Part shown: positions 1,852 through 46,252 of the stretch, one piece after another
Numbering within the stretch: the first letter of the stretch is position 1
Layout: each line of letters begins with the position of its first letter
Assembly (NCBI GenBank): GCA_036278915.1
Contig: DASUKB010000001.1
Span: 7,259 to 71,258, forward strand
DNA: 64,000 nt
Source of the DNA: Patescibacteria group bacterium
GTDB taxonomy: Bacteria > Patescibacteriota > Doudnabacteria > UBA920 > O2-02-FULL-48-8
Direction: 5' to 3'
Translations under genes and position numbers: made by a program
The notes under the pieces: generated by a model
Told to the model about the DNA's origin: nothing
Seen by the model: only the letters and a program-made list of their open reading frames with translations
Databases searched by the model: none

Positions 1852-2516
1852 ATGTACAGTCATTAAAAACCAAATTAAGGAGCAACTAAAAACACTCGGT
1901 TTTTGAGCAAATTTCTTTGATCCCTGTTGTTGTATGGGATATCGAGGAACACGAAAGGCTCGTGTTTTTTACTTGCTAAAGTGGTTTTGTGAAGTACCTT
2001 AACAATTGCATACCCAAGAATTATCAATTAGATAATCAGTCTCGCAAAGTGCGGGATCGACAACCAATTGCAGATAATTTATTGGGAATAAGACGCCGAA
2101 CCTTTTGCCGTCAAGCTAAAGGGGAGGCAAAGACGTCAATTACTTTGATTCTAGATTCCCGTTTACGGGAACAAAGGTTTGCAATTTGACCTTTTAAAAA
2201 AATAAATTGCGCCAGTTTAATCTGATTTCAGATTACACTCACAAAATTATGACCTCACTCTTTTATTAAAGGGAAAGAGGTTAGCAAATACGGCTCTGCC
2301 GGATTTGCGATGTAGGAGAAAACCGCTAGGTTGTCTCCTACACATAATTCATTGAAGAGTTTGATCCTGGCTCAGGATGAACGCTGGCGGCGTGCCTAAG
2401 ACATGCAAGTCGAGTGGGTTTAGACCCACGGCGAACGGGTGAGTAATACCTGGGAACTTTCTTCTAGTTGAGGATATCCTCCCGAAAGGGAGAGCAATAC
2501 TCGATGTGCCCAGCCC

Positions 2517-2805
2517 TTTTCTTAGTTGTATAATGTTAATTATGTATTATGTATATATAATCAAACATGATCCTTCCGGAGATATCTATATTGGATTCTC
2601 GGACAATGTTGATGCGAGATTGACTGCTCATAACAATGGGCAAAATACCTCAACACGAAGATTGTCTGGCCAATGGATACTAACATACACAGAAGCTTAT
2701 CGTTCAGAGCAAGATGCTCGTGAAAGAGAACGAAAGCTGAAACAGTACGGAAGCGCCAAACAGAGATTACTAAAAAGGATCTCAAGAAGTTTTGGAAACT
2801 GAGAA
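2517..2805 (+). other. intervening sequence (IVS) in the 16S gene, closed by a 12-bp stem
   Basis: CCCAGCCCTTTT at 2508-2519 pairs with AAAAGGGCTGGG at 2806-2817; the AT-rich interior interrupts otherwise conserved 16S sequence. Confidence 0.75.
2533..2802 (+). CDS. small GIY-YIG nuclease-superfamily protein (YhbQ/UPF0213-like) encoded inside the 16S IVS
   Basis: YVYIIKHDPSGDIYIGFSDNVDARLTAHNNG followed by an E/R/K-rich helix matches the GIY-YIG core; start codon uncertain (GTG 2506, ATG 2533 or ATG 2542). Confidence 0.7.
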   Translation: MLIMYYVYIIKHDPSGDIYIGFSDNVDARLTAHNNGQNTSTRRLSGQWILTYTEAYRSEQDARERERKLKQYGSAKQRLLKRISRSFGN

Positions 2806-4341
2806 AAGGGCTGGGTAAAGCAGCAATGCGCTAGATGTGAGGCCCGGGCCCCATCAGCTAGTTGGTAGGGTAACGGCCTACCAAGGCTATGACGGGTAGC
2901 GGAAGCGAGAGCTTGATCCGCCACACTGGGACTGCGACACGGCCCAGACTCCTACGGGAGGCAGCAGTTTGGAATTTTGGACAATGGGCGAAAGCCTGAT
3001 CCAGCGACGCCGCGTGCACGAAGAAGGCCTTCGGGTTGTAAAGTGCTTTTGCTTGGGAAAAATTTTTGATTGTACCAAGAGAATAAGAGGTTGCTAACTC
3101 TGTGCCAGCAGCAGCGGTAATACAGAGACCTCAAGCGTTATCCGGAATCATTGGGCGTAAAGCGTACCGATAGGTGGTTTTGCAAGTTTTGGGTAAAAGC
3201 CAGAAGCTCAACTTCTGCGTTTGCTCAAAATACTGCAATACTAGAGGGACAAAGAGGTTGCTGGAACGAACGGTGTAGTAGTGAAATGCGTTGATATCGT
3301 TCGGAACACCGAAAGCGAAGGCAGGCAACTGGGTGTCACCTGACACTGCTAGGACGAAAGCGTGGGGAGCGAATGGGATTAGATACCCCAGTAGTCCACG
3401 CTGTAAACGATGAGTGCTAGGAATGCGCGAGTATCGACCCTCGTGCGATCCGTAGCTAACGCGTTAAGCACTCCGCCTGGGGAGTACGGCCGCAAGGCTA
3501 AAACTCAAAGGAATTGACGGGGACCCGCACAAGCGGTGGAGCATGTGGTTTAATTCGACGGTAAGCGAGGAACCTTACCAAGGCTTGACATTCTTCTGCA
3601 AGCGCACGGAAACGTGTGACCTTCGAGGGTGAAGAACAGGTGCTGCACGGTTGTCGTCAGCTCGTGTCGTGAGATGTTCCCTTAAGTGGGAGAACGAGCG
3701 CAACCCCCATGTTATGTTGATTTTCATAACAGACTGCCGGCGTTTAAGCTGGAGGAAGGCGGGGATGACGTCAAATCAGCGTGGCTCTTACGCCTTGGGC
3801 GACACACGTGCTACAATGGATAGGAACAATGGGACGCAACACCGTAAGGTAGAGCAAATCCTCTCAAAAACTATCCTCAGTTCAGATTGAGGGCTGCAAC
3901 TCGCCCTCATGAAGCTGGAATCGCTAGTAACCGCAAATCAGCCTCGTTGCGGTGAATACGTTCTCGGGTTTTGTACACACCGCCCGTCACACCATGGAAG
4001 TGGTAAGTACCCAATATTTGCGCAAGCGAACGAAGGTAAGTATCATGACTGGGGTGAAGTCGTAACAAGGCATCGGTAGCGGAAGCTGTCGATGGATCAC
4101 CTCCTTTCTAAGGAGAATTCTGCAGAAACAGGAATCATTTCGATGAATCCTGCGGAGCAGTAATGATGGTCGATTCAGAATTGAAGCTCGCAAGAGCAGA
4201 TATTCTGAACACATCAAGACTCTGACGTTTATGTGGTTTTCGAAAGAGAATCGCAATCTTATTCCCAATAAATTGTCTGGAACCTGAAGGGTTTCTTATG
4301 ATGGAAAGCCTGGTGGCCTCACGGTCACAGGCTTTTTAAAT

Positions 4342-4364
4342 TGGTACGTACCACGTACGTACCA
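4342..4364. promoter_or_regulatory. dyad operator-like site TG-GTACGTAC-CAC-GTACGTAC-CA just after a -10-like TTAAAT
   Basis: two copies of the self-complementary octamer GTACGTAC spaced by 3 nt; the same architecture recurs at 49540-49562. Confidence 0.5.
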
Positions 4365-4427
4365 TGCCATTTTGCCATTTGGGCTCGCGACCTCGACAAA
4401 GTCGAGCGCCGGAGTTATGCTTGGGTT

Positions 4428-4991
4428 ATGTGGACAGAAGTTCTAAAATTTGTGGGCAGTATTGTCGGAGGCAGTGCCGTTCTTATAACAGCATTCACTT
4501 ACCTTTCCAAAAGGCTTATTGATCATCAGTTCACTAAAGAGATTGAAAAATTTAAAAGTGATCTTGTTATTGCTGCGAATAGAGATTCTACTACTTATAA
4601 AGAACTACACGCAAGACGAGCTGATGTCATTCACCAGCTTTATAAGAAAATAACTCGAACATATCGAGCGTATGAATCTTTAATTAACCCAATGCAATTT
4701 TTTAGTGAATTAAGCCCAGACGAAAAGAAAAAAATTGCCTCTGATGCATATAAAGACCTATTCCAATATTTTGATGAGAGACGCATATATTTTAAAGAGG
4801 AAATCGAGAATAAAATAGACCGTTTTACATCAGACATAATAAATATTAATAATGAATTTATTATGAAAGATTTCGTGTCCGTAACAAAAATTGAAAAATG
4901 GAATAAAGTCTGGATCAGATTAAAAGAAGAGACCCCAAAGATACAAAAAGAAATTAAAGACGAATTCAGATTAATCATGGGCATTAATTAA
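4428..4991 (+). CDS. hypothetical lysine-rich protein with one N-terminal TM helix and a helical cytoplasmic domain; low-GC (about 30%) gene
   Basis: ORF 4341-4991; probable start at MWTEVLKFVGSIVGGSAVLITAF; composition deviates strongly from the neighbours. Confidence 0.5.
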   Translation: MWTEVLKFVGSIVGGSAVLITAFTYLSKRLIDHQFTKEIEKFKSDLVIAANRDSTTYKELHARRADVIHQLYKKITRTYRAYESLINPMQFFSELSPDEKKKIASDAYKDLFQYFDERRIYFKEEIENKIDRFTSDIININNEFIMKDFVSVTKIEKWNKVWIRLKEETPKIQKEIKDEFRLIMGIN

Positions 4992-44700: not shown

Positions 44701-45168
44701 GGTTTGGCACCTCGATGTCGGCTCATCGCATCCTGGAGCTGGAGAAGGTTCCAAGGGTTTGGCTGTTCGCCAATTAAAGCGTTACGCGAGCTGGGTTCAA
44801 AACGTCGTGAGACAGTTTGGTCCTTATCTGTTGTGGGTGTTCGAAACTTGAGTGGGTGCATCCTTAGTACGAGAGGACCAGGATGCATGGACCTCTGGTG
44901 TATCCGTTGTCGCGTCTGCGGCATGGCGGAGTAGCTAGGTCCAGTTAAGATAAACGCTGAATGCATATAAGCGTGAAGCTGTCCACAAAACTAGGTTTCG
45001 TTGCTTGAAATATAGCGATAAGTTCGGGGAAGACTACCCCGTATTGCCTAAGTTAATTTGATTTTGCTGTAGCAATACAGTGAGAAAGAATTGATGGCGG
45101 CGCATAGGTTGCAGGTGTAAGCACAGTAATGTGTTGAGCCGAGCAATACTAATCAACTGAAAGTTTAA
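41705..45168 (+). rRNA. rrl: 23S ribosomal RNA (about 3.46 kb, with several AT-rich expansion hairpins)
   Basis: 5' end TTAAGAGTGTACGGCGGATGCCTTGGC; conserved blocks GGATAACAGGCTGATCT...TCGATGTCGGCTCATCGCATCCTGG near the 3' end; a processing stem CTAGTCAA / TTGACTAG flanks the gene. Confidence 0.92.
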
Positions 45169-45239
45169 TTAAATTTTTGACTAGCGTTTTGTGATTATTA
45201 TCACAAGTTCATTTACATCCCCGCTTTCGCGGGGACAAG

Positions 45240-45778
45240 ATTGTTTGCCGGAAAATGGAATGGCCACCTCATTATTATTCTCGCCCGCGAAGCGGGAGAG
45301 ATGTCACGCATCAGCGTGACAGAGAGGGTGGTTTAAAAGTTTGGGAGCCATGTCAGACATCTGGGCTTACGCTCAATCGCTGAAACATGCGAGCAACACG
45401 AGCCACGAGCATAAAACATCTGTCTGTCTCAAGCTCCCATTCAGTTAGGAGTGATTTGGTGTTTTGAAAGATCAGGGACGGCTCATAACCCGAACTGATT
45501 GTTCCGGTTCGTACCACCTTGAGTGGCAACCGCCGTGAACCAGGCGCCAGAAAACTCCTCCGGGATGATCTCCATCTGCCACTTCTTGGAGTCTCCCGGT
45601 CATTTCGATACTGGGGAACGGTGAAAAATTGGATTTGTGTTCATTCTGCCCTAAGACACACTCGGGCGGAATTTGAGCCGAGTCCAAGGTGTTCCTATCT
45701 CTCCTTTCACCTCTCCGTTTCCCAGACCTTTCTCCCGACGAGCTTTAAGCTTGTCGGGCCCATTTTCCGGCAAACAAT
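45240..45778. repeat. 539-bp element bounded by perfect 19-bp inverted repeats (ATTGTTTGCCGGAAAATGG / CCATTTTCCGGCAAACAAT) in the 23S-5S spacer; MITE-like or a large structured spacer RNA
   Basis: inverted repeats read directly; the interior is rich in GC hairpins (CTCGCCCGCGAAGCGGGAG, TGTCACGCATCAGCGTGACA) and has no credible ORF. Confidence 0.6.
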
Positions 45779-46134
45779 ACAACTCCGACGTTTTGCATAA
45801 CAAAAGTCGGAGTCCTGACTTGCATTTTTGTGCATCGTCGGGATTGACGGCGATTTTTGCTCTTTCCATAATGATTCCAAACTGCTATAATTAATCAGTT
45901 GGAACTAATATGGATTTGCTAATGCAAAGATATTCGCCTTCGCTTAAATTGGTAGGACTTATAATCGTTATCGCGGCCATGGGATTTATAATCTTCGCGC
46001 TTACGAAAAACACCCTGCCAATGCAGTAATACAGCGCTTCGCACTGTAATTTCTAAGCCCTAATATCTAAGCTCTAAACAAGATTAGAAATTAGTAATTA
46101 GAACTTAGAAATTGCAGCACGTAAGTGCTGAATA

Positions 46135-46252
46135 TCTCCTCGTGCTTCAAGGGCCGCTGCCCCACCCGATCCCATCCCGAACTCGGAAGTGAAACGCGGC
46201 ACCGCTCATGATACTCCAGTGTAAGACTGGTGGGAAAGTAGGCAGTGCGGGG
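46135..46252 (+). rRNA. rrf: 5S ribosomal RNA
   Basis: CCACCCGATCCCATCCCGAACTCGGAAGTGAAACG loop C/helix III block and 3' GAGAGTAGG-like segment; boundaries approximate. Confidence 0.8.

Follow-up and report, generated by a model that had tools for sequence, protein, structure and literature searches.

Separation of rRNA genes in reduced genomes is commonly explained by relaxed selection where genomes are small and growth is slow. Classical examples of unlinked rRNA genes are Rickettsia, Wolbachia, Buchnera, Borrelia, Helicobacter and Thermus (list in part from PMC8172020). The closest described systems belong to the CPR, for which unlinked rRNA genes have been published (Brewer et al. 2019/2020, 10.1101/705046; Lui et al. 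2021, PMC8172020); 27 of 34 circular CPR genomes were unlinked, the 23S and 5S genes were sometimes unlinked as well and protein genes occurred in the spacers (PMC8172020). Each rRNA gene is usually present once in a CPR genome (PMC11270868; PMC8172020), and GIY-YIG insertions in CPR rRNA are sparse and located at scattered sites (Tsurumaki et al. 2024, PMC11270868).

The window analysed here is a 64-kb stretch of DNA in which the 16S gene, a tRNA-Ile/tRNA-Ala pair, the 23S gene and the 5S gene are spread across 44 kb, in the canonical order and all on the plus strand (Table 1). Genes for rRNA were located with Rfam models, tRNA genes with ARAGORN and protein domains with Pfam. The gap from 16S to 23S was 37,597 nt by Rfam coordinates, where a linked operon has a spacer no longer than about 1.5 kb (Brewer et al.) and unlinked genes are more than 1.5–2 kb apart (Brewer 2020, Lui 2021). 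The tRNA pair lay 17.3 kb 3' of 16S and 19.8 kb 5' of 23S rather than in the protein-gene-free spacer of a linked operon, and the intervening genes included minus-strand ones (cyoEDCBA, a PsbP-like gene and a LysM gene) that preclude one operon. A sequence-only reading had placed 16S and 23S-5S far apart on one strand with the two tRNAs alone at 21.4–21.9 kb, which the Rfam and ARAGORN results bear out, and its estimate of some 40 genes separating 16S from 23S-5S is fair. Taken together with the comparisons below, this is very probably the normal inherited rRNA layout of an ultra-small Candidatus Doudnabacteria-like member of the CPR/Patescibacteria, whose ancestral operon dissolved long ago into separate ordered units. 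Assignment to this group is backed by LigA, PilM and EndoQ, which have their homologues in Doudnabacteria/Patescibacteria.

Table 1. Features of the rRNA layout and its surroundings (positions in the window).
Feature	Position	Strand	Detail
16S promoter-like site	1823-1851	+	TTGACA-17-TATTAT, 11/12 match
boxA-like motif, 16S leader	1997-2007	+	CCTTAACAATT; motif search
16S processing stem, 5' arm	2071-2093	+	pairs with 4257-4279
16S rRNA gene, full length	2349-4107	+	Rfam SSU, 1380.7 bits, model 1-1533
16S insertion	2509-2815	+	E. coli ~183-193; ~300 nt (~297 nt)
GIY-YIG ORF in insertion	2542-2802		86 aa; PF01541, E = 5.1e-15
16S processing stem, 3' arm	4257-4279	+	pairs with 2071-2093
Terminator-like hairpin, T run	4313-4337	+	after 16S
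Variable intervening block	4341-21312	.	Pfam
216-aa ORF	within 4341-21312
beta-helix surface protein	6501-9413		in block
cyoEDCBA	11608-16301	-	Pfam
PsbP-like gene	within 4341-21312	-
MFS transporter	17456-19081		in block
Pseudopilins, methyltransferase	within 4341-21312
tRNA cassette, whole	21360-21942	+
Promoter-like site, cassette	21360-21388	+	TTTACA-17-TAAATT
tRNA-Ile(GAU)	21421-21497	+	ARAGORN
Membrane-protein ORF	21527-21766	+	79 aa, between the tRNAs
tRNA-Ala(UGC)	21831-21904	+	ARAGORN
Terminator-like hairpin	21903-21942	+	end of cassette
Type IV pilus locus	22117-34371	+	Pfam; collinear in L128, L132, L133, L134
LysM protein to surface protein	34623-40879	.	Pfam; LysM gene on minus strand
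NAD-dependent DNA ligase LigA	35302-37293
beta-helix/Big_7 surface protein	37412-40879		1155 aa
23S promoter-like site	41125-41153	+	TTGACT-17-TAATAT, 9/12 match
23S promoter-like site	41213-41241	+	TTGACA-17-TATAAT, perfect
boxA-like motif, 23S leader	41494-41504	+	CTTTAACAATT; motif search
23S processing stem, 5' arm	41688-41701	+	14 pairs with 45173-45186
23S rRNA gene, full length	41704-45172	+	Rfam LSU, 2279.8 bits, model 1-2925
Structured spacer RNA	45240-45778	+	fold z = -13.3 (+) vs -9.2 (-)
Terminator-like hairpin, T run	45804-45831	+	after spacer RNA
Promoter-like sites	45844-45891	+	TTGACG-17-CATAAT, TTTCCA-17-TATAAT; upstream of small ORF and 5S
Small ORF, single-TM peptide	45910-46029	+	35-39 aa; MQRYSPSLKLVGLIIVIAAMGFIIFALTKNTLPMQ from ATG 45922
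AT-rich hairpin	46029-46133	+	~100 nt, TTAGAAA heptad repeats
5S rRNA gene	46138-46253	+	Rfam
T run, terminator-like hairpin	46303-46317	+	after 5S

Promoter, terminator and processing assignments in this study are consensus matches at the sequence level. Total counts of promoter-like and terminator-like matches in the rRNA and tRNA regions were not above chance, and it is their strength, position and conservation alone that argue for function. The consensus promoters that the sequence-only reading had assigned to each rRNA gene are all present. Because of these separate promoters, the terminator-like hairpins and the opposite-strand cyo operon, one 16S-to-5S transcript is disfavoured, and we infer that 16S, the tRNA pair and 23S-5S would be separate transcription units.

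The first unit would comprise a promoter, a boxA-like motif, the 16S gene within a 23-bp processing stem and a terminator. This stem showed 23 contiguous pairs, 22 of them Watson-Crick and one G-U, and RNase III would presumably cleave at the stems flanking both 16S and 23S. The motif CCTTAACAATT resembles the E. coli rrn boxA (TGCTCTTTAACAA), and a search of the window for the boxA-like motif gave two hits in all, one in the 16S leader and one in the 23S leader. In the relative L128, whose 16S is 91.0% identical, a homologous TTGACA-17-TATCAT occurred 406 nt upstream of the gene.

The 16S gene also carried an insertion with an intact GIY-YIG ORF that was lacking from the 1462-nt 16S of L128. 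A group I or group II intron was rejected, as no Rfam intron model matched the insertion while the same library detected a group I intron in the 16S of L073. The insertion is closed by a 13-bp stem (AGCCCTTTTC... / ...GAAAAGGGCT), which is compatible with its excision from the rRNA. It has the properties by which CPR GIY-YIG insertions are recognized, namely 100 nt or more of extra sequence compared with E. coli, no group I or II intron and a GIY-YIG ORF.

A second unit would consist of a promoter, tRNA-Ile, the 79-aa membrane-protein gene, tRNA-Ala and a terminator. The cassette was found directly upstream of pilM in L132, L133 and L134 in varying orientation, being inverted in L134 and also in L130. 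The tRNA cassette is self-contained and faces either way, depending on the relative. The 79-aa ORF was conserved in L128, L132, L133 and L134; its differences by codon position numbered 260/135/456.

The third unit would contain a perfect promoter, a boxA-like motif, the 23S gene with its 14-bp stem, a helix-bounded spacer RNA and a terminator-like hairpin. A perfect TTGACA-17-TATAAT was likewise present 479–620 nt upstream of 23S in L001, L135 and L136, and the 23S leaders of these three genomes shared a homologous boxA-like site followed by ACCGGCATC. The 23S processing stem noted earlier (CTAGTCAA/TTGACTAG) was confirmed, with a full length of 14 bp, and TTGACTAG/TTGACTGG was also found after 23S in L001, L135, L138 and L139. 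The 23S gene itself was 85.8% identical to that of L001 and had ten small expansions of 14–100 nt, with no intron found by Rfam.

The spacer RNA that follows 23S is closed by a helix of 19–20 bp (45240-45259 / 45759-45778) that was kept in five genomes with three compensatory positions and G-U wobbles. A core motif was shared with L139 and L135 only. This structured RNA had no Rfam match. RNase P RNA, for which we looked for a P4 formed from CR-I (GGAAAGUCC) and CR-V (ACAGAAnnCGGCUUA), P2/P3 after P1 and an Rfam match, was rejected as an identity: no match was obtained at E <= 10 on a 731-nt stretch, neither CR-V nor P2/P3 was seen by eye in five spacer sequences, and CR-I was represented by vague similar strings only. 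A group I or group II intron was rejected as well, with no match to the Intron_gpI or group II models.

A fourth unit would be formed by a promoter, the small ORF, 5S and a terminator. The 5S gene lies 965 nt downstream of 23S and is not adjacent to it, and because it has its own promoter, 23S and 5S are probably two units; of the single 23S-5S unit read at 41705-46252, the presence of both genes stands and their unity probably does not. An equivalent promoter directly preceded the small ORF in 7/7 genomes. The small ORF immediately upstream of 5S was itself conserved, at 32–35 aa, in all seven Doudnabacteria 23S-5S spacers examined. Its codon-position differences were 173/93/395, with 12 invariant amino-acid columns and only one invariant codon column, and we infer that the small ORFs are likely translated. 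The AT-rich hairpin between this ORF and 5S resembles the 23S expansion at 41935-42034, has seven matches to TTAGAAA compared to 0.03 expected and is absent in L138; an Rfam match of this hairpin to a miRNA precursor was spurious.

Comparison of gene order with relatives, a check that the sequence-only reading had asked for, showed the same unlinked arrangement in Doudnabacteria, with a shared order of 16S, tRNA-Ile, small ORF, tRNA-Ala, the pilM locus, LigA and 23S-5S. L128 had a homologue of ORF 6-587, 16S, 3 kb of sequence, tRNA-Ile, a homologue of the 79-aa ORF, tRNA-Ala and the pilM locus. LysM-LigA was kept upstream of 23S (-5S), without 16S, in L001, L135 and L136, and was present in L004, whose contig stops before any 23S. 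Relatives sharing the tRNA cassette-pilM arrangement showed 45–77% PilM identity and those sharing LigA-23S showed 71–77% LigA identity. Since both arrangements are common to diverged relatives, the pilus locus (pilM, N, O, B, a response regulator, pilT, pilC, pilins, a prepilin peptidase and minor pilins) is, judged by gene order, conserved backbone and not a recent insertion; LigA is conserved backbone as well. Across the CPR, 23S was near 16S in only two of the 36 loci where at least 3 kb follows 16S, and Rfam found no LSU in any of the 17 of these loci that were checked; unlinked 16S is the rule in the sampled CPR genomes, and the trait is kept within the clade.

The sequence-only reading had interpreted the locus as an ancestral operon broken by insertions within a collinear backbone, and a recent, genome-specific form of that event, in which the pilus locus, surface-protein genes and the cyo operon split a compact rrn operon in one lineage only, is improbable. 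Canonical order and strand are preserved as such an event would leave them, and part of the spacing does vary. The interval from 16S to the tRNAs is 3 kb in L128 versus 17.3 kb here, the block that fills it is either missing or exchanged for other sequence in L128, L133 and a JGI 159-kb contig, and its cyo-to-methyltransferase part is collinear with L134. The cyo operon was present in the source genome and L134, with other genes in its place in other relatives, and such operons have been published in Doudnabacteria and are thought to be laterally acquired (PMC8407418). The gene for the 1155-aa beta-helix protein, located between LigA and 23S, was specific to the source genome among the genomes compared and was absent from L001, L135 and L136. 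However, the cassette beside pilM and 23S after LigA without 16S are common to relatives with PilM identity down to 45–62% and LigA identity of about 72%, a 3-kb stretch with candidate ORFs of protein size separates 16S from tRNA-Ile even in L128, and the independent promoters are conserved. The relatives therefore largely refute a recent break-up, either peculiar to this genome or caused by the pilus locus; what endures of the earlier interpretation is the kept order, the 16S-to-tRNA interval as a variable region and a recent origin for some of the spacing only (cyo, surface proteins). Under the preferred reading of an operon dissolved long ago, the intervals between units would be hotspots of gene gain and gene loss, with the cyo operon and surface-protein genes as their variable content.

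There is still less reason to suspect an assembly artefact, with the MAG contig a chimera or mis-joined between 16S and 23S, which we regard as very unlikely. Genes for rRNA are frequent break and join points, the contigs of L138–L141 begin inside or beside 23S, and the region of 4.1–11.6 kb (16S to cyoE) was matched by none of the independent assemblies compared. Against this, independent assemblies from other samples reproduced several junctions, namely ORF 6-587 to 16S and the tRNA cassette to pilM in L128, cyo through pseudopilins to the tRNA cassette and pil locus in L134, and minor pilins through LysM, LigA, 23S and 5S to EndoQ in L001 and L135, and base composition was even across the interval (GC 0.42–0.51). 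Least credible of all is that these are decaying or spare copies with a functional linked operon elsewhere in the genome. This idea has no direct support, apart from the scan having covered 64 kb of a 385,993-bp contig. The 16S, 23S and 5S genes are each complete, score highly against their models and have strong conserved promoters and processing stems on their flanks, and rRNA genes are usually single copy in CPR (PMC11270868; PMC8172020).

Compared to E. coli rrnA, the inherited layout retains the order 16S, tRNA-Ile(GAU), tRNA-Ala(UGC), 23S, 5S, boxA-like elements both in the leader and ahead of 23S, and long-range stems around 16S and 23S. It differs in the lengths of the 16S-23S and 23S-5S spacers (446 nt and 93 nt in rrnA versus 37.6 kb and 965 nt) and in the ~40 genes, terminators and extra promoters between the rRNA genes. 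As in the classical reduced genomes, 16S lies apart from the 23S-5S pair and the genes have their own promoters, but the source genome keeps canonical order and strand within 44 kb, has tRNA-Ile/Ala in a cassette of their own lying between the rRNA genes and appears to have a 5S gene with its own promoter. The 16S insertion resembles published CPR GIY-YIG insertions in length (~300 nt), non-intron character, location at a variable-helix tip and GIY-YIG protein, with no difference found, and adds one more site (PMC11270868). The specific layout, with its tRNA cassette at the pilM locus, 23S after LigA and small ORF before 5S, was not found in the published CPR surveys consulted. There is no essential difference from the unlinked rRNA of other CPR (Brewer; Lui), with which this genome shares a 16S gene lying much further than 1.5–2 kb from 23S-5S, protein genes in spacers, possible 23S/5S uncoupling, a small and probably single-copy genome and clade conservation. 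As the layout is inherited, common to relatives and already described for CPR, it is an unremarkable instance of a known peculiarity.

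Rfam and ARAGORN positions confirmed the proposal of the sequence-only reading that the 16S gene is not linked to 23S and 5S, as all rRNA and tRNA genes lie on the plus strand and 37.6 kb with about 40 genes separates 16S from 23S. This interval contains a beta-helix surface protein, cyoEDCBA (minus strand), an MFS transporter, pseudopilins with a methyltransferase, the tRNA pair, a complete type IV pilus locus, a LysM protein (minus strand), LigA and a beta-helix/Big_7 protein, and ORFs 4341-4991, 9574-9972 and 10032-10868 of the window matched no Pfam family. Together the cyo genes (cyoA, B, C, D and a cyoE/UbiA-family gene; 11608-16301, minus strand) make up a full operon for a cytochrome bo3-type quinol oxidase, which also occurs in L134, a relative's locus covering the pilM side; a cyo operon of soil Doudnabacteria has already been described, with lateral acquisition inferred (Nicolas et al., PMC8407418). 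The promoter-like sites and the 23S flanking stem noted previously were all present in the sequence, and the description of a 23S-5S unit is refined in that 5S lies 965 nt past 23S and is not adjacent to it. The next relatives (60–80% identity) of LigA, PilM and the endonuclease Q (EndoQ) family protein were mostly Candidatus Doudnabacteria.

Features of the rRNA and tRNA genes, their predicted units and the 23S-5S spacers compared
Feature	Locus	Position	Strand	Detail
16S unit, promoter-like TTGACA-17-TATTAT	window	1823-1851
16S unit, boxA-like CCTTAACAATT	window	1997-2007	+	16S leader
16S unit, 23-bp stem around gene	window	2071-2093 / 4257-4279
SSU rRNA, complete	window	2349-4107	+	Rfam
16S unit, terminator-like hairpin	window	4313-4337
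tRNA cassette, promoter-like TTTACA-17-TAAATT	window	21360-21388		followed by tRNA-Ile
tRNA-Ile(GAT)	window	21421-21497	+	ARAGORN
tRNA cassette, 79-aa two-TM ORF (ORF79)	window	21527-21766		followed by tRNA-Ala
tRNA-Ala(TGC)	window	21831-21904	+	ARAGORN
tRNA cassette, hairpin and T run	window	21903-21942
23S unit, promoter-like TTGACT-17-TAATAT	window			upstream of the next site
23S unit, perfect TTGACA-17-TATAAT	window	41213-41241
23S unit, boxA-like CTTTAACAATT	window	41494-41504	+	23S leader
23S unit, 14-bp stem at mature ends	window	41688-41701 / 45173-45186
LSU rRNA, complete	window	41704-45172	+	Rfam
Helix-bounded spacer	window	45240-45778
Helix-bounded spacer	L138	2087-2778
Helix-bounded spacer	L139	2130-2604
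Helix-bounded spacer	L001	18531-19276
Helix-bounded spacer	L135	14472-15096
5S unit, promoter-like sites	window	45844-45891
5S unit, small ORF	window	45910-46029		followed by ~100-nt hairpin, 5S, T run and hairpin
Small ORF	L001	19337-19435
Small ORF	L135	15147-15245
Small ORF	L138	2893-3012
Small ORF	L139	2660-2758
Small ORF	L140	339-437
Small ORF	L141	4047-4145
5S rRNA	window	46138-46253	+	Rfam

From sequence-level evidence, with conserved promoters, boxA-like motifs and processing stems, we infer that the rRNA and tRNA genes form four self-contained units, which would be transcribed independently and processed by RNase III. The boxA-like antitermination 11-mer (YYTTAACAATT) had two matches in 64 kb, both on the plus strand and confined to the 16S and 23S leaders. 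Its 23S leader site, followed by ACCGGCATC, was kept in L001, L135 and L136, three relatives' loci on the 23S side in which a perfect TTGACA-17-TATAAT also lies 479–620 nt upstream of 23S, and TTGACA-17-TATCAT sits 406 nt upstream of 16S in L128.

L128 was the useful one among five loci found in a metagenome scan with PilM, its 16S being 91.0% and its PilM 61% identical to those of the window. Gene order in L128 runs from a homologue of ORF 6-587 through 16S, 3 kb holding several protein-sized ORFs (judged by ORF size only), tRNA-Ile on the opposite strand, an ORF79 homologue and tRNA-Ala to pilM, N, O ... B, T, C. L134 (PilM 77%) and the window are collinear over a stretch that starts at cyoE, takes in the pseudopilins and methyltransferase and runs into the pil locus. 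As for the tRNA-Ile/ORF79/tRNA-Ala cassette, L134 and L130 have all of it inverted and L128 and L133 only tRNA-Ile, and in the relatives' loci L127, L130 and L132 tRNA-Ala, or both tRNAs, lies directly before pilM. Upstream of the cassette, Ku/LigD was found in L133 and GroES/GroEL in a JGI 159-kb contig, both lacking a 16S gene within 10 kb. A tblastn comparison of window proteins with four GTDB Doudnabacteria representatives (L049, L062, L073, L115) gave no matches for synteny around 16S; therefore these genomes are too distant and the 16S flanks are not conserved. ORF79 showed 47–77% identity in L128, L132, L133 and L134, with codon-position differences of 260/135/456, and matched no Pfam family. 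It is unusual for a protein gene to occupy the Ile-Ala spacer position. As a class, protein genes within rRNA spacers of CPR have already been noted (Lui et al., PMC8172020).

On the 23S side, L001, a 964-kb Doudnabacteria contig (LigA 73%), carries LysM (minus strand), LigA, small genes, 23S, a spacer, 5S and then genes homologous to 46909 and 47702 of the window, with no 16S within 15 kb upstream. The same LigA-to-23S arrangement was found in L135 and L136. In a JGI contig (LigA 77%), pil genes precede LysM, LigA and a small number of genes, after which come a gene-free gap of ~3 kb and a LAGLIDADG ORF; we read this last part as a putative intron-bearing 23S. A LigA-based look-up found no 23S within 10 kb past LigA in L137 (JAXOUH010038138.1), so that LigA-23S adjacency is common and not universal. 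Past 5S, the genes at 46514-48964, small ORFs followed by the EndoQ family protein (47702-48964; 74–80% identity across Doudnabacteria), are conserved in L001 and in L138–L141, the contigs fetched via the EndoQ gene, and continue in relatives with NUDIX, DnaG and RpoD; on its right-hand side, therefore, the 23S-5S locus has stable neighbours. All four of L138–L141 start inside or just before 23S, and such frequent assembly breaks call for caution over linkage inferred from short contigs.

Taken together, 16S ... [Ile-ORF79-Ala]-pil locus ... LigA ... 23S-5S is an old backbone, its variable parts are the region upstream of the tRNA cassette and the LigA-to-23S stretch, and the cassette itself is an autonomous, invertible unit. 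The split is old, and gene turnover has its hotspots in the spacers. Canonical order and strand are kept and the size of the 16S-to-tRNA interval varies, which fits spacer expansion through gene gain. The earlier proposal was of an ancestral rrn operon broken by insertions of the pilus locus, surface-protein genes and cyo into a collinear backbone; spacer growth, with cyo as a plausible insertion, survives from it, but a recent break and the pilus locus as an insertion do not, because the relatives diverged after the separation had arisen and after the pilus locus had come to lie between tRNA-Ala and 23S. A contig mis-join between the rRNA genes is unlikely to have created this layout, because independent assemblies reproduce every junction except 4.1-11.6 kb and base composition is even. 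That these are relic copies is likewise unlikely, as the genes in the 64-kb window are full-length with conserved promoters and stems.

The seven Doudnabacteria 23S-5S spacers compared (window, L001, L135, L138–L141; 223–1019 nt) all contain a 32–35-aa single-TM ORF (MQ[RK]Y..S[LF][KR]LVGL...NTL) located 12–137 nt before 5S. Codon-position differences of 173/93/395 gave a strong third-position bias, and 12 amino-acid columns were invariant in comparison to one codon column; on both grounds this small ORF is considered coding, and it matched no Pfam family. Between the spacers of the window and of L001, blastn matched nothing but the small ORF and the 23S stem. Every copy (7/7) is preceded by a sigma-70-like promoter, the -10 box of which ends 7–9 nt before the ATG in five genomes. 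This spacing suggests that the mRNA would be leaderless in these five, with 5S as its putative 3' part.

A helix of ~20 bp, found in five genomes and absent from L140 and L141, pairs sequence just past the 23S stem with sequence just before the small-ORF promoter. Compensatory double changes occur at three of its positions, and it has four G-U wobbles, which become C-A mismatches if read on the other strand. In the window it surrounds 540 nt of RNA whose fold is exceptionally stable (z = -13.3; minus strand -9.2), and in L001 and L135 it encloses tRNA genes as well. L001 also has a tRNA-like gene of 100 nt (19045-19144), with an insertion inside it, that matched Rfam and not ARAGORN. A 109-nt core with some covariation was limited to the window, L139 and L135, and therefore the interior is modular and variable and the closing helix alone is present in all five. 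One conserved ncRNA family covering the interior was rejected, as the covariance model of the core recovered its three source sequences and not L138, L001 or any of 100 loci. The spacer RNA matched no Rfam family, which also disposed of RNase P RNA (CR-V/P2/P3 absent) and, together with a lack of ARAGORN matches, of tmRNA, group I/II introns and an intron-split tRNA; the string CGGCUCAUAACCCGA, resembling an initiator-tRNA anticodon arm, allows just 2–3 pairs. The most economical reading of the spacer is a cassette bounded by a putative processing stem, from which a stable RNA product could possibly arise. It is possible, if somewhat doubtful, that Doudnabacteria, instead of obtaining 5S from the 23S transcript, take it from the 3' portion of a short mRNA, in many cases leaderless, that encodes a conserved 32–35-aa membrane peptide, and that the stretch from 23S to the promoter is a helix-clamped cassette from which RNase III-type processing frees extra structured RNA and, in some species, tRNAs. 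If true, this would be an undescribed organisation of 5S expression with a possible new stable RNA at a ribosomal locus.

Both 16S (1759 nt) and 23S (3469 nt) exceed their models because of insertions. In comparison to E. coli rrnA, 23S has ten expansions of 14–100 nt each, and 16S has ~297 extra nt (window 2509-2815) at E. coli positions ~183-193, absent from the 91% identical 16S of L128. This 16S insertion has a 13-bp closing stem, an extended -10-like TGTATAAT and, intact, a nuclease ORF of 86 aa (2542-2802) with a GIY-YIG domain (PF01541, E = 5.1e-15), and matched no intron model. Exactly such a class of non-intron CPR rRNA insertions with GIY-YIG ORFs has been described (Tsurumaki et al., PMC11270868), and the window insertion is like it in both its non-intron nature and its ORF. 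Elsewhere, L073 has a group I intron in 16S (6825-6998), a type that the window's 23S lacks, and 23S of L135 (~10607-14087) and L141 (2824-3330) carries large insertions with LAGLIDADG ORFs, of which the window's 23S has none. Two AT-rich hairpins of ~100 nt built from TTAGAAA/TTTCTAA heptads were also observed (7 motif matches vs 0.03 expected), one forming a 23S expansion (41935-42034; E. coli ~232) and the other lying between the small ORF and 5S (46029-46133), where the closest relative, L138, has just 12 nt. These may represent a small palindromic insertion element or an IVS-type hairpin.

What the analysis adds is a resolved rRNA-locus anatomy for one CPR class. The positions of the two small membrane-protein genes normally hold only spacer RNA, and if RNA data confirm them, these genes and the helix-bounded spacer RNA could matter more than the layout, as the small ORFs and helix bear on the control of rRNA stoichiometry in minimal bacteria without an operon. 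The practical consequences of an unlinked layout are known: 16S-ITS-23S amplicon typing fails in such organisms, and it is at rRNA genes that binning and contig breaks concentrate. A mismatch at the 515F site (window ~3100-3125), relevant to primer bias, is another already-known consequence; this universal primer site reads GTGCCAGCAGCAGCGGTAATAC, with A and not C. The 515F variant occurs in at least 120 species representatives (L006-L125), almost all CPR, and mis-binning probably accounts for the few records that carry the labels Gammaproteobacteria, Pirellulales, Polyangiaceae or Chitinophagaceae.

A search with the 16S signature GTGCCAGCAGCAGCGG... returned at least 120 species-representative loci, nearly all CPR, and linkage was counted in those 36 in which the 3' end of 16S is complete and 3 kb or more follows downstream. 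A 23S gene was found in two of these (L029, L046), 2.0–2.5 kb from 16S with Ile and Ala between, tRNA-Ile was kept after 16S in 21, and Rfam detected no LSU in any of the 17 tested. Patescibacteria are among the clades with unlinked rRNA genes (Brewer et al., 10.1101/705046), and in 27 of 34 circularised CPR genomes the rRNA genes were unlinked, at times including separation of 23S from 5S (Lui et al., PMC8172020). Our sample agrees with this literature, and the window is therefore a new example of known unlinked rRNA genes, the explanation for which is ordinary for the phylum and already published.
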